From the NCBI RefSeq assembly GCF_003790525.1, contig NZ_CP033635.1: 64,000 nucleotides of DNA; one strand, written 5' to 3'. The notes under the pieces are model-generated. The model saw only the letters and a program-made list of their open reading frames with translations. It searched no databases and was not told where the DNA came from. The translations under genes were made by a program, and so were the position numbers. The stretch comes from Escherichia coli (GTDB lineage Bacteria; Pseudomonadota; Gammaproteobacteria; Enterobacterales; Enterobacteriaceae). Positions 562-63,998 of the stretch are shown in pieces (position 1 is the stretch's first letter; every line of letters begins with the position of its first letter).

Positions 562-1863
562 ATGAAAAAACTGTTTATCCAGTTTTACCTGTTATTGTTT
601 GTCTGCTTCCTTGTGATGTCTCTGCTGGTCGGGCTGGTGTACAAATTTACCGCCGAACGCGCAGGCAAACAGTCGCTGGATGATTTGATGAACAGTTCGC
701 TGTATCTGATGCGCAGCGAATTGCGTGAGATCCCCCCACACGACTGGGGTAAGACGCTGAAAGAGATGGATTTAAATCTCTCTTTCGATCTGCGTGTCGA
801 GCCGCTGAGTAAATACCATCTTGATGATATTTCCATGCACCGGCTGCGTGGCGGCGAAATTGTCGCTCTGGACGATCAGTACACCTTTTTGCAACGTATC
901 CCGCGCAGCCACTACGTGCTGGCAGTTGGTCCTGTTCCTTATCTTTATTACCTCCATCAGATGCGATTACTGGATATCGCCCTGATCGCTTTTATTGCTA
1001 TTTCCCTCGCCTTTCCGGTGTTTATCTGGATGCGTCCGCACTGGCAGGATATGTTAAAACTGGAAGCAGCGGCGCAACGATTTGGCGATGGGCATCTCAA
1101 TGAACGTATCCACTTTGATGAGGGTTCGAGCTTTGAACGACTTGGTGTTGCATTTAACCAGATGGCGGACAATATCAACGCCTTGATTGCCAGCAAAAAA
1201 CAGCTTATTGACGGTATCGCTCACGAACTGCGAACACCGTTAGTGCGCCTGCGTTATCGACTGGAGATGAGCGATAACCTGAGCGCCGCCGAATCCCAGG
1301 CGTTGAACCGCGATATCAGTCAACTTGAAGCTTTAATTGAAGAGCTTCTGACTTATGCCCGACTCGATCGCCCACAAAATGAGCTTCATCTTAGCGAACC
1401 AGACCTGCCGTTGTGGCTGTCAACGCATCTGGCAGATATTCAGGCAGTAACGCCCGATAAAACGGTACGGATAAAAACGCTCATGCAAGGCCATTATGCG
1501 GCGTTGGATATGCGCTTAATGGAGCGCGTGCTGGATAATTTGCTCAATAACGCCCTGCGCTACTGTCATTCAACGGTTGAAACCAGCCTGCTACTGTCGG
1601 GGAATAGAGCGACATTAATTGTTGAGGATGATGGCCCAGGGATTGCCCCAGAAAACCGCGAACATATCTTTGAACCTTTTGTTCGCCTCGATCCCAGCCG
1701 GGATCGCTCAACCGGCGGCTGCGGGCTGGGGCTGGCAATTGTCCACTCTATAGCACTGGCAATGGGCGGTACGGTTAATTGTGACACCAGCGAACTGGGT
1801 GGTGCCCGCTTCTCGTTTAGCTGGCCGTTATGGCATAACATCCCGCAATTTACCTCTGCCTGA
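562..1863 (+). CDS. rstB: Sensor histidine kinase RstB
   Basis: 433 aa; N-terminal transmembrane segments, HAMP region, H-box (IAHELRTPL) and HATPase motifs; starts 4 nt after the rstA stop. Confidence 0.9.
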   Translation: MKKLFIQFYLLLFVCFLVMSLLVGLVYKFTAERAGKQSLDDLMNSSLYLMRSELREIPPHDWGKTLKEMDLNLSFDLRVEPLSKYHLDDISMHRLRGGEIVALDDQYTFLQRIPRSHYVLAVGPVPYLYYLHQMRLLDIALIAFIAISLAFPVFIWMRPHWQDMLKLEAAAQRFGDGHLNERIHFDEGSSFERLGVAFNQMADNINALIASKKQLIDGIAHELRTPLVRLRYRLEMSDNLSAAESQALNRDISQLEALIEELLTYARLDRPQNELHLSEPDLPLWLSTHLADIQAVTPDKTVRIKTLMQGHYAALDMRLMERVLDNLLNNALRYCHSTVETSLLLSGNRATLIVEDDGPGIAPENREHIFEPFVRLDPSRDRSTGGCGLGLAIVHSIALAMGGTVNCDTSELGGARFSFSWPLWHNIPQFTSA

Positions 1864-1905
1864 CACTATGCGCACGGTGGTCAAGTCACCACCATTGTGC
1901 TATAA

Positions 1906-4268
<2,363 letters not shown>

Positions 4269-4410: not shown

Positions 4411-6057
4411 TTATTTCACACAGCGGGTGCACTGTGTGAGTTGTATCTGCTGGAAGAAGTCATTTCCTTTATCATCCACAAGGATAAATGCCGGGAAATC
4501 TTCCACTTCAATTTTCCAGATGGCTTCCATTCCCAGTTCCGGATATTCAACACATTCCAGGCTCTTAATACTACCCTGCGCCAATACAGCGGCCGGACCA
4601 CCGATACTGCCAAGGTAGAAACCGCCGTGTTTTTTACAGGCATCCGTCACCTGCTGGCTGCGGTTGCCTTTCGCCAGCATGATCATACTTCCTCCCTGCG
4701 CTTGCAGTTGATCGACATAAGAATCCATCCGTCCGGCGGTCGTTGGGCCAAGAGAACCGGAGGCATAACCTTCCGGCGTTTTGGCCGGACCCGCATAGTA
4801 AATCGGATGATCTTTGATGTACTGCGGCAGCCCTTCACCGTTATCCATCCGCTCTTTCAGTTTGGCGTGAGCAATATCACGACCGACGATAATCGTGCCA
4901 TTCAGCGATAAGCGTGTAGAAACGGGATACTGCGACAACTGTGCGAGGATCTCTTTCATCGGACGGTTAAGGTCAACGCGCACCGCTTCGCCTTCTCCCG
5001 CTTTGCGCAGCTCTTCCGGGATATATTTTCCTGGATTATGTTCCAGTTTTTCGATCCAGATCCCCTGACGGTTGATCTTCGCTTTGATATTACGGTCAGC
5101 AGAACAGGAGACGCCCATACCGACCGGGCAGGATGCGCCGTGACGTGGCAGGCGAATCACGCGGATGTCGTGAGCGAAGTATTTACCACCAAACTGCGCA
5201 CCCAGACCAAGATTTTGCGCTTCGATCAGCAATTCTTTTTCCAGTTCCACATCGCGGAACGCCTGTCCGTGCTCATTCCCTTCCGTTGGCAGTTCATCAT
5301 AGTATTTAGCGGAAGCCAGTTTCACCGTTTTAAGGTTCGTTTCTGCAGAAGTTCCACCAATAACGAACGCAATATGATACGGAGGACAGGCCGCCGTACC
5401 CAGCGTGCGCATCTTCTCAACCAGGTAATTTTTCAGTTTCCCCGGCGTTAGTAACGCTTTGGTTTCCTGATACAGATACGTCTTGTTTGCCGAACCGCCA
5501 CCTTTGGCGATACAGAGGAATTTGTACTCGTCGCCATCAACGGCATAAAGATCGATCTGCGCTGGTAGATTGGTGCCGGTATTCACCTCTTTATACATAT
5601 CCAGCGGCGCGTTTTGCGAGTAGCGCAGATTATCTTCGATATAAGTGTTATAGACACCGCGTGCCAGCGCCGCTTCATCACCGCCACCGGTCCATACACG
5701 CTGCCCTTTTTTACCAACAATAATCGCGGTGCCGGTATCCTGACAGGTCGGCAGAATGCCTTTCGCCGCGATGTCGGAGTTACGCAGGAATTGCAGCGCC
5801 ACATATTTATCATTTTCGCTGGCTTCCGGGTCACGCAGAATGTCGGCCACCTGTTGTTGGTGAGCCGGACGCAGCATAAATGACGCATCATGAAACGCTT
5901 GACGCGCCAACAGAGTTAACGCTTCGGGTGCGACTTTCAAAATCTCCTGCCCTTCAAATTCAGATACGCTAACGTGTTCGCTGGTTAGCAGGTAATACTC
6001 AGTATCATCTTTTTTGAGTGGAAAAGGAGCCTGATAATGAAAGGGTTTGTTTGACAT
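4411..6057 (-). CDS. fumA: Fumarate hydratase class I, aerobic (Fe-S fumarase A)
   Basis: 548 aa; class I Fe-S hydrolyase family; upstream of fumC in the same orientation. Confidence 0.95.
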
Positions 6058-6255: not shown

Positions 6256-7431
6256 ATGCAAAAACTCATTAACTCAGTGCAAAACTATGCCTGGGGCAGC
6301 AAAACGGCGTTGACTGAACTTTATGGTATGGAAAATCCGTCCAGCCAGCCGATGGCCGAGCTGTGGATGGGCGCACATCCGAAAAGCAGTTCACGAGTGC
6401 AGAATGCCGCCGGAGATATCGTTTCACTGCGTGATGTGATTGAGAGTGATAAAGCGACTCTTTTGGGAGATGCCGTTGCCAAACGCTTTGGCGAACTGCC
6501 TTTCCTGTTCAAAGTATTATGCGCAGCACAGCCGCTCTCCATTCAGGTTCATCCAAACAAACGCAATTCTGAAATCGGTTTTGCCAAAGAAAATGCCGCA
6601 GGTATTCCGATGGATGCCGCCGAGCGTAACTATAAAGATCCTAACCACAAGCCGGAGCTGGTTTTTGCGCTGACGCCTTTCCTTGCGATGAACGCGTTTC
6701 GTGAGTTTTCCGAGATTGTCTCCCTGCTCCAGCCGGTCGCAGGTGCACATCCGGCGATTGCTCACTTTTTACAACAGCCTGATGCCGAACGTTTAAGCGA
6801 ACTGTTCGCCAGCCTGTTGAATATGCAGGGTGAAGAAAAATCCCGCGCGCTGGCGATTTTAAAATCGGCCCTCGACAGCCAGCAGGGTGAACCGTGGCAA
6901 ACGATTCGTTTAATTTCTGAATTTTACCCGGATGACAGCGGTCTGTTCTCCCCGCTGTTGCTGAATGTGGTGAAATTGAATCCTGGCGAAGCGATGTTCC
7001 TGTTCGCTGAAACGCCGCACGCTTACCTGCAAGGCGTGGCGCTGGAAGTGATGGCGAACTCCGATAACGTGCTGCGTGCGGGTCTGACGCCTAAATATAT
7101 TGATATTCCGGAACTGGTTGCCAATGTGAAGTTCGAAGCCAAACCGGCTAACCAGTTGTTGACCCAGCCGGTGAAACAAGGTGCAGAACTGGACTTCCCG
7201 ATTCCTGTGGATGATTTTGCCTTCTCGCTGCATGACCTTAGTGATAAAGAAACCACCATTAGCCAGCAGAGTGCCGCCATTTTGTTCTGCGTCGAAGGCG
7301 ATGCAACGCTGTGTAAAGGTTCTCAGCAGTTACAGCTTAAACCGGGTGAATCAGCGTTTATTGCCGCCAACGAATCACCGGTGACTGTCAAAGGCCACGG
7401 TCGTTTAGCGCGTGTTTACAACAAGCTGTAA
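6256..7431 (+). CDS. manA: Mannose-6-phosphate isomerase
   Basis: 391 aa from MQKLINSVQNYAWGS; the tracked ORF starts at an upstream TTG, but the ATG at 6256 has an AGGGA Shine-Dalgarno sequence. Confidence 0.9.
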   Translation: MQKLINSVQNYAWGSKTALTELYGMENPSSQPMAELWMGAHPKSSSRVQNAAGDIVSLRDVIESDKATLLGDAVAKRFGELPFLFKVLCAAQPLSIQVHPNKRNSEIGFAKENAAGIPMDAAERNYKDPNHKPELVFALTPFLAMNAFREFSEIVSLLQPVAGAHPAIAHFLQQPDAERLSELFASLLNMQGEEKSRALAILKSALDSQQGEPWQTIRLISEFYPDDSGLFSPLLLNVVKLNPGEAMFLFAETPHAYLQGVALEVMANSDNVLRAGLTPKYIDIPELVANVKFEAKPANQLLTQPVKQGAELDFPIPVDDFAFSLHDLSDKETTISQQSAAILFCVEGDATLCKGSQQLQLKPGESAFIAANESPVTVKGHGRLARVYNKL

Positions 7432-7531
7432 GAGCTTACTGAAAAAATTAACATCTCTTGCTAAGCTTATTAAAGGCTTATAACACCTTCAGGCGGCCAG
7501 TCCGCCTGATTTCATTTTATGGATAATCATT

Positions 7532-9040
7532 ATGAATAAATCGCTGGTAGCGGTAGGCGTCATTGTTGCGCTAGGCGTAGTCTGGACAGGCGGCGCATGG
7601 TATACAGGCAAGAAGATTGAAACCCATCTCGAAGACATGGTCGCGCAGGCGAACGCGCAACTCAAACTGACCGCTCCTGAATCCAACCTGGAAGTGAGTT
7701 ATCAAAACTATCATCGCGGCGTATTCAGCAGTCAGCTGCAACTGTTGGTGAAACCCATTGCCGGGAAAGAAAATCCGTGGATTAAAAGCGGTCAGAGCGT
7801 CATCTTCAACGAATCGGTTGATCATGGTCCCTTCCCCCTTGCCCAGCTAAAAAAACTGAACCTGCTCCCGTCGATGGCATCAATTCAAACCACGCTGGTT
7901 AATAACGAAGTTAGCAAGCCACTGTTTGATATGGCAAAAGGTGAAACGCCTTTTGAGATTAACTCCCGCATTGGTTACAGCGGAGATTCCAGTTCCGATA
8001 TTTCGCTCAAGCCGCTGAATTACGAGCAAAAGGATGAAAAAGTCGCCTTTAGCGGCGGCGAGTTCCAGTTAAATGCGGACAGAGACGGCAAAGCTATCTC
8101 CCTTTCCGGAGAGGCGCAAAGTGGTCGGATAGACGCAGTTAACGAATACAACCAGAAAGTGCAGTTGACCTTTAATAATCTGAAAACCGACGGTTCCAGC
8201 ACGCTGGCAAGTTTTGGTGAGCGCGTAGGAAACCAAAAACTGTCACTGGAAAAAATGACCATTTCAGTGGAAGGCAAAGAACTGGCACTGCTGGAAGGCA
8301 TGGAGATCAGCGGTAAATCGGATCTGGTCAATGACGGTAAAACGATCAATAGCCAACTGGATTACTCGCTAAACAGCCTGAAGGTACAGAATCAGGATCT
8401 GGGCAGTGGCAAGCTGACTTTAAAAGTCGGCCAGATTGATGGTGAAGCCTGGCATCAGTTTAGCCAGCAATATAACGCGCAAACTCAGGCGCTGCTGGCA
8501 CAGCCAGAAATTGCCAACAATCCCGAACTTTATCAGGAGAAAGTGACGGAAGCCTTCTTTAGCGCCCTGCCGCTGATGTTGAAAGGCGATCCGGTGATTA
8601 CTATCGCGCCGCTAAGCTGGAAAAACAGTCAGGGTGAAAGTGCGCTGAATCTGTCGCTGTTCCTGAAAGATCCGGCAACGACTAAAGAAGCGCCGCAAAC
8701 GCTGACGCAGGAAGTAGATCGTTCGGTTAAATCTCTGGATGCGAAACTGACCATTCCGGTGGATATGGCAACTGAGTTGATGACTCAGGTAGCGAAGCTG
8801 GAAGGTTATCAGGAAGATCAAGCGAAAAAACTGGCGAAACAGCAAGTTGAAGGTGCATCAGCAATGGGGCAGATGTTCCGTCTGACCACCTTGCAGGACA
8901 ATACCATCACCACCAGCCTGCAATATGCTAACGGTCAGATAACGTTAAACGGGCAGAAAATGCCACTGGAAGATTTCGTGGGTATGTTTGCGATGCCGAC
9001 ATTAAACGTTCCGGCTGTACCCGCTATTCCGCAGCAGTAA
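7532..9040 (+). CDS. ydgA: Uncharacterised protein YdgA (DUF945 family), N-terminal signal/anchor
   Basis: 502 aa; hydrophobic N-terminus (LVAVGVIVALGVVWTGGAWY); otherwise a hydrophilic, probably periplasmic protein. Confidence 0.85.
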   Translation: MNKSLVAVGVIVALGVVWTGGAWYTGKKIETHLEDMVAQANAQLKLTAPESNLEVSYQNYHRGVFSSQLQLLVKPIAGKENPWIKSGQSVIFNESVDHGPFPLAQLKKLNLLPSMASIQTTLVNNEVSKPLFDMAKGETPFEINSRIGYSGDSSSDISLKPLNYEQKDEKVAFSGGEFQLNADRDGKAISLSGEAQSGRIDAVNEYNQKVQLTFNNLKTDGSSTLASFGERVGNQKLSLEKMTISVEGKELALLEGMEISGKSDLVNDGKTINSQLDYSLNSLKVQNQDLGSGKLTLKVGQIDGEAWHQFSQQYNAQTQALLAQPEIANNPELYQEKVTEAFFSALPLMLKGDPVITIAPLSWKNSQGESALNLSLFLKDPATTKEAPQTLTQEVDRSVKSLDAKLTIPVDMATELMTQVAKLEGYQEDQAKKLAKQQVEGASAMGQMFRLTTLQDNTITTSLQYANGQITLNGQKMPLEDFVGMFAMPTLNVPAVPAIPQQ

Positions 9041-37284: not shown

Positions 37285-37752
37285 ATGATTAAACGCGTAT
37301 TGGTTGTTTCAATGGTAGGTCTGTCTCTTGTCGGTTGTGTTAATAACGACACCCTGTCAGGGGATGTTTATACCGCTTCTGAAGCGAAACAAGTACAGAA
37401 TGTCAGCTATGGCACCATCGTTAACGTACGTCCGGTACAGATTCAGGGCGGTGATGATTCCAACGTTATCGGCGCAATTGGCGGTGCTGTTCTTGGTGGT
37501 TTCCTGGGAAATACTGTTGGCGGCGGAACCGGGCGTTCTCTGGCTACTGCAGCAGGCGCTGTTGCAGGTGGCGTAGCCGGTCAGGGCGTACAGAGTGCAA
37601 TGAACAAAACGCAGGGTGTCGAGCTGGAAATTCGTAAAGACGATGGTAATACCATCATGGTGGTACAGAAACAAGGCAACACTCGTTTCTCTCCGGGCCA
37701 ACGTGTCGTACTGGCCAGCAATGGCAGTCAGGTGACCGTTTCCCCGCGCTAA
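37285..37752 (+). CDS. slyB: Outer-membrane lipoprotein SlyB (glycine-zipper)
   Basis: 155 aa; lipobox LVGC and Gly-rich glycine-zipper segment. Confidence 0.95.
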   Translation: MIKRVLVVSMVGLSLVGCVNNDTLSGDVYTASEAKQVQNVSYGTIVNVRPVQIQGGDDSNVIGAIGGAVLGGFLGNTVGGGTGRSLATAAGAVAGGVAGQGVQSAMNKTQGVELEIRKDDGNTIMVVQKQGNTRFSPGQRVVLASNGSQVTVSPR

Positions 37753-37798
37753 ATAAGTTTGCGTGTGGTCAGGTTACTGACCACACGCCCCCTTCATT

Positions 37799-38233
37799 TC
37801 ACCCTTTGGCCTGTAACTCAATGATATTATGCTCAAGTTTTGCGATGAGCTTAATCAGTTGTTCCAGTTCCTCTGCGGAGATGCCATGTAAAATTTCCGC
37901 GCGGGTTTTGTTAATAACAGCTTCCATTTCGCTGATCAGTGGCTCTGCCTTTTCCGTCAGTTTAATACGTTTAGCCCGACGATCGCTGGCACAAGTTTGA
38001 CGCGAAATTAACCCTTTTTCTTCCAGTTGGTCCAGAGTACGGACCAGTGATGGCTGCTCGATGCCAATCGCTTTTGCCAGTTGAATTTGCGACTGGTCTG
38101 GAGGTAACTGATGGATATTGTGTAACGTAACCCAATGGGTTTGTGTTAACTCCAGCGGTTTCAGGCGATGGTCTATCAGAGCACGCCATATGCGCACCAA
38201 CCGTGCCAGATCAGAACCTAGTGGCGATTCCAA
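37799..38233 (-). CDS. slyA: MarR-family transcriptional regulator SlyA
   Basis: 144 aa if initiated at the TTG ([13 protein letters not shown]...), which is my recollection of the E. coli start; the tracked ORF extends 2 codons further, to 38239. Confidence 0.85.
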
Positions 38234-38249
38234 TTTCATCTCCTTATAA

Positions 38250-38261
38250 TTAGCTTGCTAA
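38250..38261. promoter_or_regulatory. SlyA-box palindrome TTAGCTTGCTAA
   Basis: Exact reverse complement of the SlyA consensus TTAGCAAGCTAA; 11-17 bp upstream of the slyA start, in the slyA-ydhI divergent region. Confidence 0.7.
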
Positions 38262-38433
38262 GATATTATGCGGCTTTTAGAATAGTGTGCAGCAATTGTA
38301 TTGCTAAAACAAATGTATTGCTGCATTTGGTTACCGTCAGACATATTTTTCAGAAATTGCGCGTAAATTTTTCGCACTTAAAGAATATTTATTAATCTAA
38401 CGCAATATATTCGGTCGTAAAGGAATCTACTTT

Positions 38434-38670
38434 GTGAAGTTTATGCTCAATGCAACAGGATTGCCCTTACAAGATCTGGTGTTCGGTGCGTCCGTCTACT
38501 TTCCTCCGTTTTTCAAAGCCTTCGCGTTTGGATTCGTCATCTGGCTTGTCGTACACCGCCTGCTTCGTGGCTGGATCTACGCTGGTGACATCTGGCATCC
38601 CTTGTTAATGGATTTATCGCTGTTTGCGATTTGCGTTTGCCTTGCCCTGGCAATACTGATTGCGTGGTAA
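38434..38670 (+). CDS. ydhI: Small inner-membrane protein YdhI (DUF1656; AaeX paralogue)
   Basis: 78 aa; GTG start with an AAGGA Shine-Dalgarno sequence; two predicted transmembrane helices. Confidence 0.8.
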
Positions 38671-38672
38671 CT

Positions 38673-39530
38673 ATGTCAATTAAAACAATTAAGTATTTCT
38701 CAACAATCATTGTAGCGGTAGTTGCGGTTCTTGCCGGATGGTGGCTGTGGAATTATTACATGCAATCTCCGTGGACACGCGACGGGAAAATACGCGCAGA
38801 ACAGGTTTCTATCACCCCTCAGGTGTCGGGACGTATTGTTGAGCTGAATATAAAAGACAACCAGCTGGTTAACGCGGGGGATCTTCTGCTCACGATCGAT
38901 AAAACGCCCTTTAAGATCGCCGAGCTGAACGCACAGGCTCAGCTGGCGAAAGCGCAATCTGACCTCGCAAAAGCCAATAACGAAGCGAATCGTCGTCGTC
39001 ATCTCTCACAAAATTTTATTTCTGCCGAAGAACTCGATACCGCTAACCTCAATGTTAAAGCGATGCAGGCCAGTGTTGATGCCGCACAGGCGACGCTGAA
39101 ACAGGCACAATGGCAACTGGCGCAAACGGAAATTCGCGCCCCGGTGAGTGGATGGGTGACTAACCTCACTACCCGCATCGGCGATTACGCTGACACAGGG
39201 AAACCGCTGTTTGCCCTTGTCGACAGCCACTCGTTTTACGTCATTGGTTATTTTGAAGAAACCAAGTTGCGCCATATCCGCGAAGGTGCACCAGCACAAA
39301 TTACCCTCTATAGTGATAACAAAACGTTACAGGGTCACGTTTCCAGTATCGGTCGGGCGATTTATGATCAGAGCGTTGAAAGTGACTCAAGCCTTATTCC
39401 GGATGTGAAACCTAACGTCCCCTGGGTTCGACTCGCCCAACGCGTTCCCGTCCGCTTTGCGCTGGATAAAGTCCCAGGCGATGTCACGCTGGTGTCGGGC
39501 ACCACCTGTAGCATTGCCGTAGGTCAATAA
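38673..39530 (+). CDS. ydhJ: HlyD-family membrane-fusion (periplasmic adaptor) protein YdhJ
   Basis: 285 aa from [10 protein letters not shown]-terminal anchor, coiled-coil, lipoyl/beta-barrel-like regions; AaeA paralogue. Confidence 0.85.
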
Positions 39531-41542
39531 TGAACGCATCGTCATGGTCCTTGCGCAATTTGCCCTGGTTCAGGGCCACGCTGGCGCAATGGCGTTATGC
39601 GTTACGCAATACCATTGCCATGTGTCTGGCGCTGACGGTTGCCTATTATTTAAATCTGGATGAACCCTATTGGGCGATGACCTCGGCTGCCGTGGTTAGC
39701 TTTCCCACCGTGGGCGGTGTCATCAGCAAAAGCCTCGGACGCATCGCTGGCAGTTTGCTCGGAGCCATTGCGGCACTGCTTCTTGCCGGACATACACTTA
39801 ATGAGCCGTGGTTTTTTCTTTTGAGCATGGCGGCGTGGCTTGGCTTTTGTACCTGGGCCTGTGCGCACTTCACGAATAATGTCGCGTATGCATTTCAACT
39901 GGCGGGCTACACGGCTGCCATCATCGCCTTTCCGATGGTTAATATTACTGAGGCCAGCCAGCTGTGGGATATCGCTCAGGCGCGCGTTTGCGAGGTGATT
40001 GTCGGTATTTTGTGCGGCGGCATGATGATGATGATCCTGCCGAGCAATTCCGATGCTACAGCCCTTTTAACCGCATTGAAAAACATGCACGCCCGATTGC
40101 TGGAACATGCCAGTTTACTCTGGCAGCCTGAAACAACCGATGCCATTCGTGCAGCACATGAAGGGGTGATTGGGCAGATACTGACCATGAATTTGCTCCG
40201 TATCCAGGCTTTCTGGAGCCACTATCGTTTTCGCCAGCAAAACGCACGCCTTAATGCGCTGCTCCACCAGCAATTACGTATGACCAGTGTCATCTCCAGC
40301 CTGCGACGTATGTTGCTCAACTGGCCCTCACCGCCAGGTGCCACACGAGAAATTCTCGAACAGCTGCTGACGGCGCTCGCCAGTTCGCAAACAGATGTTT
40401 ACACCGTCGCACGTATTATCGCCCCGCTACGCCCGACCAACGTCGCCGACTATCGGCACGTCGCCTTCTGGCAGCGACTACGTTATTTTTGCCGACTTTA
40501 TCTGCAAAGTAGTCAGGAATTACATCGTCTGCAAAGCGGTGTAGATGATCATACCAGACTCCCACGGACATCCGGCCTGGCTCGTCATACCGATAACGCC
40601 GAAGCTATGTGGAGCGGGCTGCGTACATTTTGTACGTTGATGATGATTGGCACATGGAGTATTGCTTCGCAATGGGATGCCGGTGCCAATGCATTAACGC
40701 TGGCAGCGATTAGCTGCGTACTCTACTCCGCCGTCGCAGCTCCGTTTAAGTCGTTGTCACTGCTGATGCGTACGCTGGTGTTACTTTCGCTATTCAGCTT
40801 TGTGGTCAAATTTGGCCTGATGGTCCAGATTAGCGATCTGTGGCAATTTTTACTGTTTCTCTTTCCACTGCTGGCGACGATGCAGCTTCTTAAATTGCAG
40901 ATGCCCAAATTTGCCGCACTGTGGGGGCAACTGATTGTTTTTATGGGTTCGTTTATCGCTGTCACTAATCCCCCGGTGTATGATTTTGCTGATTTTCTTA
41001 ACGATAATCTGGCAAAAATCGTTGGCGTTGCGCTGGCGTGGTTAGCGTTCGCCATTCTGCGTCCAGGATCGGATGCTCGTAAAAGTCGCCGTCATATTCG
41101 CGCGCTGCGCCGGGATTTTGTCGATCAACTAAGCCGCCATCCATCACTGAGTGAAAGCGAATTTGAATCGCTCACTTATCATCACGTCAGTCAGTTGAGT
41201 AACAGCCAGGATGCGATGGCTCGCCGTTGGTTATTACGCTGGGGTGTAGTGCTGCTGAACTGTTCTCATGTTGTCTGGCAATTGCGCGACTGGGAATCGC
41301 GTTCCGATCCGTTATCGCGAGTACGGGATAACTGTATTTCACTGTTGCGCGGAGTGATGAGTGAGCGTGGCGTTCAGCAAAAATCACTGGCGGCCACACT
41401 TGAAGAATTACAGCGAATTTGCGACAGCCTTGCCCGTCATCATCAACCTGCCGCCCGTGAGCTGGCGGCAATTGTCTGGCGGCTGTACTGCTCGCTTTCG
41501 CAACTTGAGCAAGCACCGCCGCAAGGTACGCTGGCCTCTTAA
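39530..41542 (+). CDS. ydhK: FUSC/AaeB-family putative efflux transporter YdhK
   Basis: 670 aa with two hydrophobic domains separated by a cytoplasmic region; start overlaps the ydhJ stop. Confidence 0.85.
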
Positions 41543-42064
41543 TTACTTAATTACACCACAGGCATAGCGTTCACCGCCACCGCCCAGCGGTTTAGGTTGA
41601 TCGGACATATTATCGCCGCCAACGTGGACCATCAGTGCTTTGTCTTTGACTTCATCCAGTGATTTCAGACGAGGCGCGATGACGGCATCGGTAGCTTTGC
41701 CGTCATTATTGACGACCAGTGCAGGCAGATCGCCTAAATGCCCGGCACCTTCTGGCCCTTCATGTTTACCGGTATTTTGTGGATCAAGATGCCCGCCTGC
41801 GGATTCCGCGGCGCTGGCTTTGCCATCTTTGGTGGCTGGCTGGCAGCTTCCTTTGGCATGAATATGGAAGCCATGTTCACCGGGGGGTAATGCTTTCAGG
41901 TCGGGCGAAAACTCCAGACCTTTATCGGTTTCAGTAATGGTGACGCTACCAATTGACTGCCCAACCCCTTGCGACGTGACGAGGTTCATCTCGACTTTTT
42001 CACTGGCAGCTTGTGCGCCGGTCGCAACAACCAGCGCCAGAATGGCCAGACTAAAACGTTTCAT
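41543..42064 (-). CDS. sodC: Periplasmic Cu,Zn superoxide dismutase
   Basis: 173 aa from MKRFSLAILALVVATGAQA (signal peptide) with a GGAGG Shine-Dalgarno sequence; Cu/Zn-binding His motifs. Confidence 0.95.
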   Translation of the reverse strand: MKRFSLAILALVVATGAQAASEKVEMNLVTSQGVGQSIGSVTITETDKGLEFSPDLKALPPGEHGFHIHAKGSCQPATKDGKASAAESAGGHLDPQNTGKHEGPEGAGHLGDLPALVVNNDGKATDAVIAPRLKSLDEVKDKALMVHVGGDNMSDQPKPLGGGGERYACGVIK

Positions 42065-54951: not shown

Positions 54952-55189
54952 CAAGTTTTCTCCTTTTTTATTACCACACAAAAAGTGATATTACGCATTT
55001 TTACACACTGTGATGAAAAAATCTCCCGTCATTTATAATGATAAGTGTTTTTACCACTTCCCCTTTTCGTCAAGATCGGCCAAAATTCCACGCTTACACT
55101 ATTTGCGTACTGGCCATTGACCCCTTCCTGACGCTCCGTGTCGTTTTTCCGGCGTACCGCAACACTTTTGTTGTGCGTAAGGTGTGTAA

Positions 55190-55205
55190 AGGCAAACGTT
55201 TACCT
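55190..55205. promoter_or_regulatory. PUR box (purR autoregulatory operator O1): AGGCAAACGTTTACCT
   Basis: Matches the PurR operator consensus (core GCAAACGTTT); 45 bp upstream of the purR ATG. Confidence 0.7.
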
Positions 55206-55249
55206 TGCGATTTTGCAGGAGCTGAAGTTAGGGTCTGGAGTGAAATGGA

Positions 55250-63840: not shown

Positions 63841-63917
63841 GCGTTCATAGCTCAGTTGGTTAGAGCACCACCTTGACATGGTGGGGGTCGTTGGTTCGAG
63901 TCCAATTGAACGCACCA
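63841..63917 (+). tRNA. valV: tRNA-Val (anticodon GAC)
   Basis: 77 nt: GCGTTCATAGCTCAGTTGGTTAGAGC...anticodon loop CTTGACAT...TTCGAGTCC...CGCACCA; cloverleaf with encoded CCA. Confidence 0.9.
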
Positions 63918-63921
63918 TCCT

Positions 63922-63998
63922 GCGTCCGTAGCTCAGTTGGTTAGAGCACCACCTTGACATGGTGGGGGTCGGTGGTTCGAGTCCACTCGGACGCACCA
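63922..63998 (+). tRNA. valW: tRNA-Val (anticodon GAC), second tandem copy
   Basis: 77 nt: GCGTCCGTAGCTCAGTTGGTTAGAGC...TTGACAT...CGCACCA; differs from the first copy in the acceptor and T stems; 4-nt spacer. Confidence 0.9.

Follow-up and report, generated by a model that had tools for sequence, protein, structure and literature searches.

Here, we describe the slyA-ydhIJK locus in a 64-kb stretch of Escherichia coli DNA, which is referred to below as the window. In this locus, located at positions 37799-41542 according to the open reading frame (ORF) list and the RefSeq annotation, slyA on the minus strand is divergent from the ydhI, ydhJ, and ydhK genes, and we consider it very likely that the system is a core-genome exporter of aromatic carboxylic acids that is controlled by the regulator SlyA and is paralogous to AaeXAB. 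The locus is real and correctly identified, and it is already known. A sequence-only reading of the window had presented it as an under-described functional system, a description that has to be withdrawn: electrophoretic mobility shift assays (EMSA), in vitro transcription, footprinting, fusaric-acid growth experiments, RNA sequencing (RNA-seq), and proteomics have all been published. The discovery value is small, since published work already covers the locus, its SlyA box, the binding of SlyA, the regulation, and a resistance phenotype. Our analysis provides the gene identities, the family memberships, the box, and the modeled fold of YdhK; what it adds is the conservation of the box, which extends to species that have no ydhIJK, the divergence of the ydhI side of the control region, and the paralogy with AaeXAB.

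The genes of the locus are as follows.

37799-38233, minus strand: slyA, MarR-family regulator, 144 amino acids, TTG start (ORF list, RefSeq)
38434-38670, plus strand: ydhI, 78 amino acids, GTG start (RefSeq)
38673-39530, plus strand: ydhJ (RefSeq)
39530-41542, plus strand: ydhK, 670 amino acids (RefSeq)

The stop codon of ydhI is separated from the ATG of ydhJ by 2 nt, and ydhJ and ydhK overlap by 1 nt within TAATG; the gene identities and the spacing are those that the sequence-only reading had given, and every feature it named is present. In slyA, an in-frame ATG lies at 38239, two codons 5' of the RefSeq TTG start. A 5.2-kb query spanning the locus is 100% identical to the chromosome of E. 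coli SMS-3-5, and 5425 of 5426 complete E. coli genomes carry the slyA-ydhIJK stretch; the natural substrate of this core-genome pump is a modest but real question.

The control region between slyA and ydhI is 200 bp long and contains 31.5% GC, compared with 51% for the window. Adjoining slyA, it holds two elements:

38250-38261, minus strand: high-affinity SlyA box, exact 12/12 match to the published consensus TTAGCAAGCTAA
38240-38245, minus strand: putative slyA Shine-Dalgarno sequence, AAGGAG (a reading of the letters; CTCCTT is found at the same offset in 79 of 80 species)

The exact SlyA consensus is thus present in the shared control region, as had been claimed; TTAGCAAGCTAA, which is the reading on the slyA strand (the plus-strand reading is TTAGCTTGCTAA), occurs as a single exact copy in the window, where 0.01 copies are expected, and a match arose in one of 100 shuffles. 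The box had also been called a perfect palindrome at the slyA start. The consensus match is indeed exact, but the symmetry is imperfect, with 5-bp arms (TTAGC/GCTAA) flanking a non-symmetric central dinucleotide, and the box is located 16 nt 5' of the slyA TTG start, where it immediately precedes the Shine-Dalgarno sequence of slyA; its distance to the start codon of ydhI is 172 nt. When the region upstream of the regulator gene was compared with TTAGCAAGCTAA and with the relaxed form TTAN6TAA, two further sites with 9/12 matches were found in addition to this 12/12 match. The box is listed as the PslyA site in Table 3 of PMC5797941. In that study, Curran et al. (2017) demonstrated by EMSA that SlyA binds to exactly this slyA-ydhI fragment from K-12, with an apparent dissociation constant of ~50-100 nM at the tested promoters, and gave TTAGCAAGCTAA and TTAGATTAATAA as candidate sites (PMC5797941). 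Because the intergenic region of the window is 100% identical to that of K-12 MG1655 (5405 E. coli genomes carry it with an identity of 99% or more), the K-12 results apply to it directly.

We surveyed the locus across species by a SlyA scan with one genome per species, which yielded 80 Enterobacteriaceae loci. The divergent slyA/ydhIJK layout is kept in 77 of the 80 species; the three exceptions, in which ydhIJK is absent or survives only as remnants, are Intestinirhabdus alba (L039), Kosakonia oryziphila (L045), and a metagenome-assembled genome (L081), none of which has ydhJ or a full-length ydhK. An exact box, always at the same distance from the start of slyA, is found in 78 of the 80 species, among them all three that have lost ydhIJK, and the other two species have one mismatch each; this suggests that the box is first of all an operator of slyA. 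The slyA-proximal ~95 bp (38234 to ~38320) are near-invariant over 18 genera, and the ydhI-proximal ~100 bp have diverged; this pattern is the one in Fig. 6C of Will et al. and is reproduced here.

The other elements of the intergenic region that are used below are the following candidates.

38234-38320, no strand: slyA-proximal half, near-invariant across genera in the 18-genus alignment; includes the box
38265-38270, slyA strand: candidate slyA -10, TATAAT in 55 of 80 species (element counts; putative assignment)
38255-38283, plus strand: sigma-70-like candidate promoter TTGCTA-17-TAGAAT (promoter scan; putative assignment)
38288-38296 and 38317-38325: perfect 9-nt inverted repeat, TGCAGCAAT / ATTGCTGCA, arms 20 nt apart
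38296-38307, minus strand: degenerate SlyA-like candidate site TTGTATTGCTAA, 9/12 matches, inside the 9-nt inverted repeat (sequence match)
38376-38400, plus strand: sigma-E-type promoter-like motif ACTT-N16-TCTAA, ending 33 nt 5' of the ydhI start codon
38389-38400, plus strand: second SlyA-like candidate site TTATTAATCTAA, TTAN6TAA, 9/12 matches, overlapping the sigma-E -10

The sigma-70-like element has its -35 (TTGCTA) inside the box, and its TAGAAT -10 is almost invariant across species; it could yield a box-controlled ydhI transcript with a long leader. Of the 81 sequences that were scanned, the window is the only one with the full ACTT-N16-TCTAA motif, which was judged against the sigma-E promoter class GGAACTT-N16-TCNAA, and the TCTAA -10 by itself is common to the window and the other four Escherichia loci. 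The overlapping TTAN6TAA site at 38389-38400 occurs in Escherichia loci only; PMC5797941 gives it as TTAGATTAATAA at a distance of 161 bp upstream of slyA. As candidates, these promoter motifs draw on position, conservation, and the literature only. Two side observations concern the same region. The stretch TTTTAGAATAGTGTGCAG at 38274-38292 is almost invariant in 18 genera, and more strictly so than the candidate slyA -10; it may act as the -10 of a promoter directed toward ydhI, belong to the slyA promoter, or bind another factor. Moreover, the inverted repeat at 38288-38325, which falls in the intergenic part largely conserved across genera, surrounds TGTATTGCT, which occurs twice in direct orientation, as well as a degenerate version of the SlyA box, AATTGTATTGCTAA (38294-38307).

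The sequence-only reading regarded the perfect box as a control element of ydhI, and this is doubtful. From its conservation, we infer that the box is primarily the autoregulatory operator of slyA, and we lean, slightly, toward the stronger form of this explanation, in which the box is essentially an autoregulatory operator and ydhIJK is controlled through separate weaker sites and sigma-E. The exact match in 78 of 80 species at a fixed slyA offset, including L039, L045, and L081, and the overlap of the box with the predicted slyA -10/+1 region argue for it. On the other hand, regulators of the MarR type often use one operator cluster to govern both promoters of a divergent pair, and the plus-strand sigma-70-like promoter, whose -35 falls within the box, could produce a ydhI transcript with a long leader, under direct repression through the box. 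The footprint obtained in Salmonella supports separate sites: it places the salicylate-sensitive ydhI operator at a different site, a 75% (9/12) match close to the -35 of ydhI, and SlyA remained bound 'upstream of the ydhI promoter' when salicylate was added (PMC6401476). The perfect box is thereby ruled out as the ydhI operator of Salmonella.

The published regulation fits a SlyA-controlled exporter, with a difference between species. In Salmonella, SlyA represses ydhI ~19-fold and slyA ~5-fold in vitro, and salicylate relieves the repression (Will et al. 2019; PMC6401476); in fusaric acid, ydhIJK mutants showed slower or delayed growth and slyA mutants improved growth (PMC6401476). RNA-seq of a slyA mutant puts ydhIJK among the SlyA-repressed genes, in a study that also noted the homology with AaeAB (Will et al. 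2025; PMC12506092). Proteomics in Klebsiella showed YdhJ to be increased 45- to >100-fold when KvrA, the orthologue of SlyA, is lost. The divergence from the regulator gene is confirmed in the window, but repression and salicylate relief are known from Salmonella and Klebsiella only, whereas the E. coli data indicate mild activation. A sigma-E promoter, PydhIJK, has been assigned (PMC7075262; PMC2685091), with ydhIJK RNA reaching 20-fold above baseline after sigma-E induction (PMC7075262); the main text of Rhodius 2006 does not mention the ydhIJK genes. Overexpression of ydhK lowers viability (PMC2685091), and the YdhJ protein was 3.5-fold up in vanillin-treated E. coli. That no substrate is established for YdhIJK had been stated from the sequence alone, and the 2025 paper agrees: the physiological function 'remains to be determined' and is probably the export of an endogenous compound (PMC12506092). 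A published substrate assignment, which had been named beforehand as an outcome that would tell against the sequence-only reading, exists in part, because the fusaric acid phenotype has been published.

We propose that SlyA, a MarR-family dimer, would bind the exact operator just 5' of its own ribosome-binding site, and also weaker sites deeper in the 200-bp AT-rich intergenic region, and would thereby control both its own promoter and the divergent ydhIJK promoter or promoters. Aromatic carboxylates such as salicylate and benzoate would bind SlyA and lower its affinity for DNA, such that the pump is de-repressed; in Escherichia, the sigma-E-type promoter adjoining ydhI would add an envelope-stress input. 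The tightly packed ydhIJK genes are probably translationally coupled. YdhK would act as an FUSC/ArAE inner-membrane protein composed of a fused pair of ALMT-like halves, with YdhJ as a membrane-anchored periplasmic adaptor and YdhI as a small DUF1656 protein, and together they would expel aromatic carboxylic acids, fusaric acid being the only compound for which a phenotype is known. SlyA binding in E. coli, the repression, salicylate relief, and fusaric-acid phenotype in Salmonella, and the sigma-E promoter were demonstrated in the studies cited above; the transfer of the Salmonella and Klebsiella results to E. coli, the assignment of promoters to sites, and the mechanism of transport are what we infer.

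Several observations weigh against this proposal. Overproduction of SlyA in K-12 raised ydhIJK transcripts 2.2-fold, which the authors read as activation (PMC5797941). The salicylate-sensitive ydhI site of Salmonella is the 75% site described above and not the perfect box (PMC6401476), and at the position of that site E. coli matches only 6/12 in our reading of the alignment. The box itself lies 172 nt from the ydhI start codon and is kept in the three species without ydhIJK. The sigma-E and sigma-70-like motifs are no more frequent in the window than expected by chance: the former was matched once against 0.82 expected, and the latter once against 1.8 expected. Finally, fusaric-acid resistance is a growth phenotype, known from Salmonella only, and not a transport assay (PMC6401476), and fusaric acid was doubted as a natural substrate by the authors themselves (PMC12506092).

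The protein evidence is consistent with an exporter of the proposed type. SlyA scores 277.6 bits against the NCBIfam equivalog NF002926 (cutoff 120) over residues 3-145 and matches the solved SlyA structure 3q5f in the PDB with an E-value of 3e-80, which places it in the SlyA family. YdhI belongs to the DUF1656/AaeX type (Pfam DUF1656, E 1.8e-14) and has two hydrophobic stretches by hydropathy, at about residues 21-44 and 53-78. YdhJ matches the Pfam families HlyD_D23 (8e-17), Biotin_lipoyl_2 (5.5e-12), and HlyD_3 (3.5e-10) and exceeds the cutoff of TIGR01730 (134.3 vs 94.9); residues 1-30 form a hydrophobic N-terminus that would serve as a membrane anchor, and these matches identify YdhJ as a predicted membrane-anchored periplasmic adaptor of the HlyD/EmrA type, with barrel-sandwich and lipoyl-like domains. 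The term 'tripartite efflux module' had been applied to the locus. It holds insofar as three genes are meant; however, it does not hold for an assembly of inner-membrane, adaptor, and outer-membrane proteins, because no outer-membrane factor gene is found in or adjoining the ydhIJK operon, the neighbors of which are the convergent sodC downstream and slyA upstream. Accordingly, the operon lacks the dedicated gene expected of an envelope-spanning tripartite pump.

YdhK is a full-length FUSC protein (PF04632, E 4.3e-140, model positions 1-658 of 660), which places it in the FUSC/ArAE family (TCDB 2.A.85); it is entered as TC 2.A.85.1.6, 'uncharacterized' (PMC10971958). A search through 1.84 billion representative proteins returned 3128 matches at E <=0.001, from which we made an alignment of 85 sequences, and the AlphaFold2 model of YdhK obtained with this alignment has a predicted local distance difference test score of 94 and a predicted template modeling score of 0.91. 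In a comparison by hhalign, the N and C halves of YdhK match each other with a probability of 95.7% and an E-value of 1e-8 over 244 columns, and the pattern of hydropathy and helices repeats as well, such that each half comprises a transmembrane bundle and, after it, a helical domain in the cytoplasm. BLASTP of the halves against each other did not detect an internal repeat (E 0.18), a single-sequence search of YdhK against the PDB gave a borderline match to ALMT12 alone (E 0.28), and our PDB search found no solved structure of any FUSC-family protein. The family profile of YdhK, by comparison, matches ALMT9, ALMT12, and ALMT1 at E ~1e-6, and the K67/R71 motif and the R152 motif of YdhK align with the basic-residue motifs of the third and sixth transmembrane segments of ALMT channels (ALMT9). 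These residues are conserved in the alignment (R152 in 85/85 sequences, R71 in 84/85, K67 in 83/85), and the similarity to ALMT channels together with the conserved pore basic residues points to an ALMT-like fold in the model. The position in the C half aligned to R152 is N491, an asparagine in 76 of the 85 sequences, and the basic residues are kept by the N-terminal repeat only. Because the halves are homologous and R152 is replaced by N491 in the C half, YdhK resembles an ALMT homodimer that has been fused into one chain and has become asymmetric. This fold suggests a channel-type mechanism for the FUSC/ArAE transporters. As a side observation, the best match to YdhK covers only 473-562 of its 670 residues in Citrobacter amalonaticus (L020), Trabulsiella (L053), and Lelliottia (L066); these short matches (ydhK region ~1690-3710) may reflect a frameshift or pseudogene, or a split alignment.

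The properties of YdhK also bear on the nature of the substrate. An exporter or channel that is linked to envelope stress and handles an endogenous anionic metabolite, with protection from fusaric acid as a side activity, is conceivable, and we hold it as a tentative explanation that falls short of even chances. Membership in the sigma-E regulon with the 20-fold RNA response and the reduced viability upon ydhK overexpression agree with it, as does the ALMT-channel fold, the single-repeat FUSC homologue Rv2571c having been proposed to export alpha-ketoglutarate. Nevertheless, no endogenous substrate is known, the known ligands of the regulator are aromatic carboxylates, and AaeAB, the closest characterized paralogue, exports aromatic acids; the preferred explanation remains an exporter of aromatic carboxylic acids.

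The divergence of the ydhI side could explain the difference in SlyA control. In the Salmonella loci, the sole 9/12 site is TTTGCTTACCAA, which is mid-intergenic and not conserved in E. coli, and Salmonella has neither of the E. coli sites at 38296-38307 and 38389-38400. We take this as indicating that the pump-side control region has probably been rewired between genera, which could account for mild activation in E. coli as opposed to strong repression in Salmonella and Klebsiella. It is unlikely, however, that SlyA is a net activator of ydhIJK in E. coli, antagonizing H-NS on the AT-rich intergenic region with a rewired ydhI-proximal half: the 2.2-fold increase, the binding of SlyA to the fragment (PMC5797941), the low GC content, the divergence of the ydhI-proximal ~100 bp between genera, and the exchanged 9/12 sites agree with it, but the increase is slight and was observed solely with slyA in multicopy, the site at 38389-38400 overlaps the sigma-E-type -10 and would predict repression, and repression is strong in Salmonella and Klebsiella, which are closely related to E. 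coli. The opposite apparent sign of SlyA control in E. coli and in Salmonella and Klebsiella is a modest but real question.

Taken together, the fold and the control region admit a bolder proposal, to which we assign only a small chance as a whole: YdhK would be a fused, asymmetric anion channel of the ALMT type and not a proton-coupled transporter, and its expression in Escherichia would have been rewired to the coincidence of envelope stress and aromatic acid. In such a channel, a single pore formed by the N-terminal repeat (K67, R71, R152) may pass aromatic carboxylate anions down the membrane potential, and YdhJ and YdhI may guide the anions across the periplasm. With a SlyA site on the sigma-E -10, the exporter may be made only if envelope stress and an aromatic-acid signal coincide. 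The substrate, the sign and wiring of SlyA control, and the mechanism of FUSC proteins are not revealed by the sequence itself.

The surroundings of the locus comprise the following features.

37285-37752, plus strand: slyB (RefSeq)
37761-37788, no strand assigned: likely terminator, a hairpin with a 12-bp stem where slyB and slyA converge, given on the slyA strand by the terminator-like scan
41543-42064, minus strand: sodC, convergent to ydhK (RefSeq)

The ydhK stop codon TAA (41540-41542) touches the sodC stop codon (41543-41545, minus strand). Because zero bases separate the two stop codons, the ydhK and sodC transcripts must overlap, and the pair is listed as an excludon candidate (PMC12288877). 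On the other side, slyB lies ~1.5 kb farther from slyA in Enterobacter, Klebsiella, Lelliottia, Kluyvera, and relatives than in Escherichia, Citrobacter, and Salmonella (at ~7000-7550 rather than ~5500-5950; L031, L033-L035, L038, and ~35 others), a shift implying that an additional gene lies between the two. An Rfam search returned zero RNA elements in the slyA-ydhIJK locus. Elsewhere in the window, the Rfam small RNA (sRNA) family STnc550 matches with 396 bits at 54859-55249 on the minus strand and spans cydH (54862-54951), an annotated 29-amino-acid ORF for an accessory subunit of cytochrome bd-I; therefore, what this 'sRNA' family describes is the mRNA of a small protein. Two tandem tRNA-Val(GAC) genes lie at the window end (63841-63998, plus strand).

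Among known systems, AaeXAB (YhcRQP), which exports aromatic carboxylic acids in E. coli, shares with ydhIJK the gene order, the families (DUF1656, HlyD-type adaptor, FUSC/ArAE), the tight packing, and a divergent regulator gene. In comparison with the K-12 proteins, YdhI is 33% identical to AaeX over 51 residues, YdhJ 40% identical to AaeA over 282 residues, and YdhK 24% identical to AaeB over 521 residues; gene order, families, and identities bear out the AaeXAB-like architecture that had been proposed, in the sense of paralogy. All three proteins score far under the NCBIfam equivalog cutoffs for AaeXAB (YdhI 21.4 vs 82, YdhJ 242.5 vs 400, and YdhK 120.2 vs 870 bits), which rules out orthology; judged by these comparisons, YdhIJK are paralogues of AaeXAB and not orthologues. 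The systems also differ in their regulators, AaeR being annotated as a DNA-binding transcriptional activator (and presumably of the LysR type, although the record names no family), whereas the neighbor of ydhIJK is the MarR-type SlyA. Unlike those of YdhIJK, moreover, the substrates of AaeAB are defined (4-hydroxybenzoate and others, cited in PMC12506092).

The slyA-ydhIJK locus of Salmonella Typhimurium and the kvrA-ydhIJK locus of K. pneumoniae are orthologous to that of the window, with the same gene order, the exact box, its offset, and the conserved ~95 bp; this likeness was seen in Salmonella subspecies, Klebsiella, Enterobacter, Citrobacter, and others. They differ in the diverged ydhI-proximal ~100 bp, the second site and the sigma-E-type motif of E. 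coli being specific to Escherichia, and in the direction of SlyA control, which is repression in Salmonella and Klebsiella as opposed to mild activation in E. coli K-12.

The FusC-type pumps, Burkholderia Bucl8/FusCDE and Stenotrophomonas FuaABC, likewise combine an FUSC inner-membrane protein, a small DUF protein, and a membrane-fusion protein; they confer fusaric-acid resistance and respond to 4-hydroxybenzoate (PMC7682875). These pumps, however, have their own outer-membrane factor ('tetrapartite') and another type of regulator, whereas ydhIJK encodes no outer-membrane factor. More distantly, the ALMT/QUAC anion channels of plants and Rv2571c resemble YdhK in profile homology (E ~1e-6), with YdhK K67/R71 and R152 aligned to ALMT basic residues. 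An ALMT-like fold was reported earlier for Rv2571c, a single-repeat mycobacterial FUSC protein, and the FUSC-ALMT link is therefore not new at the family level. ALMT channels and Rv2571c are homodimers of one repeat, whereas YdhK unites two diverged repeats in one chain and works alongside a periplasmic adaptor and a small partner protein.

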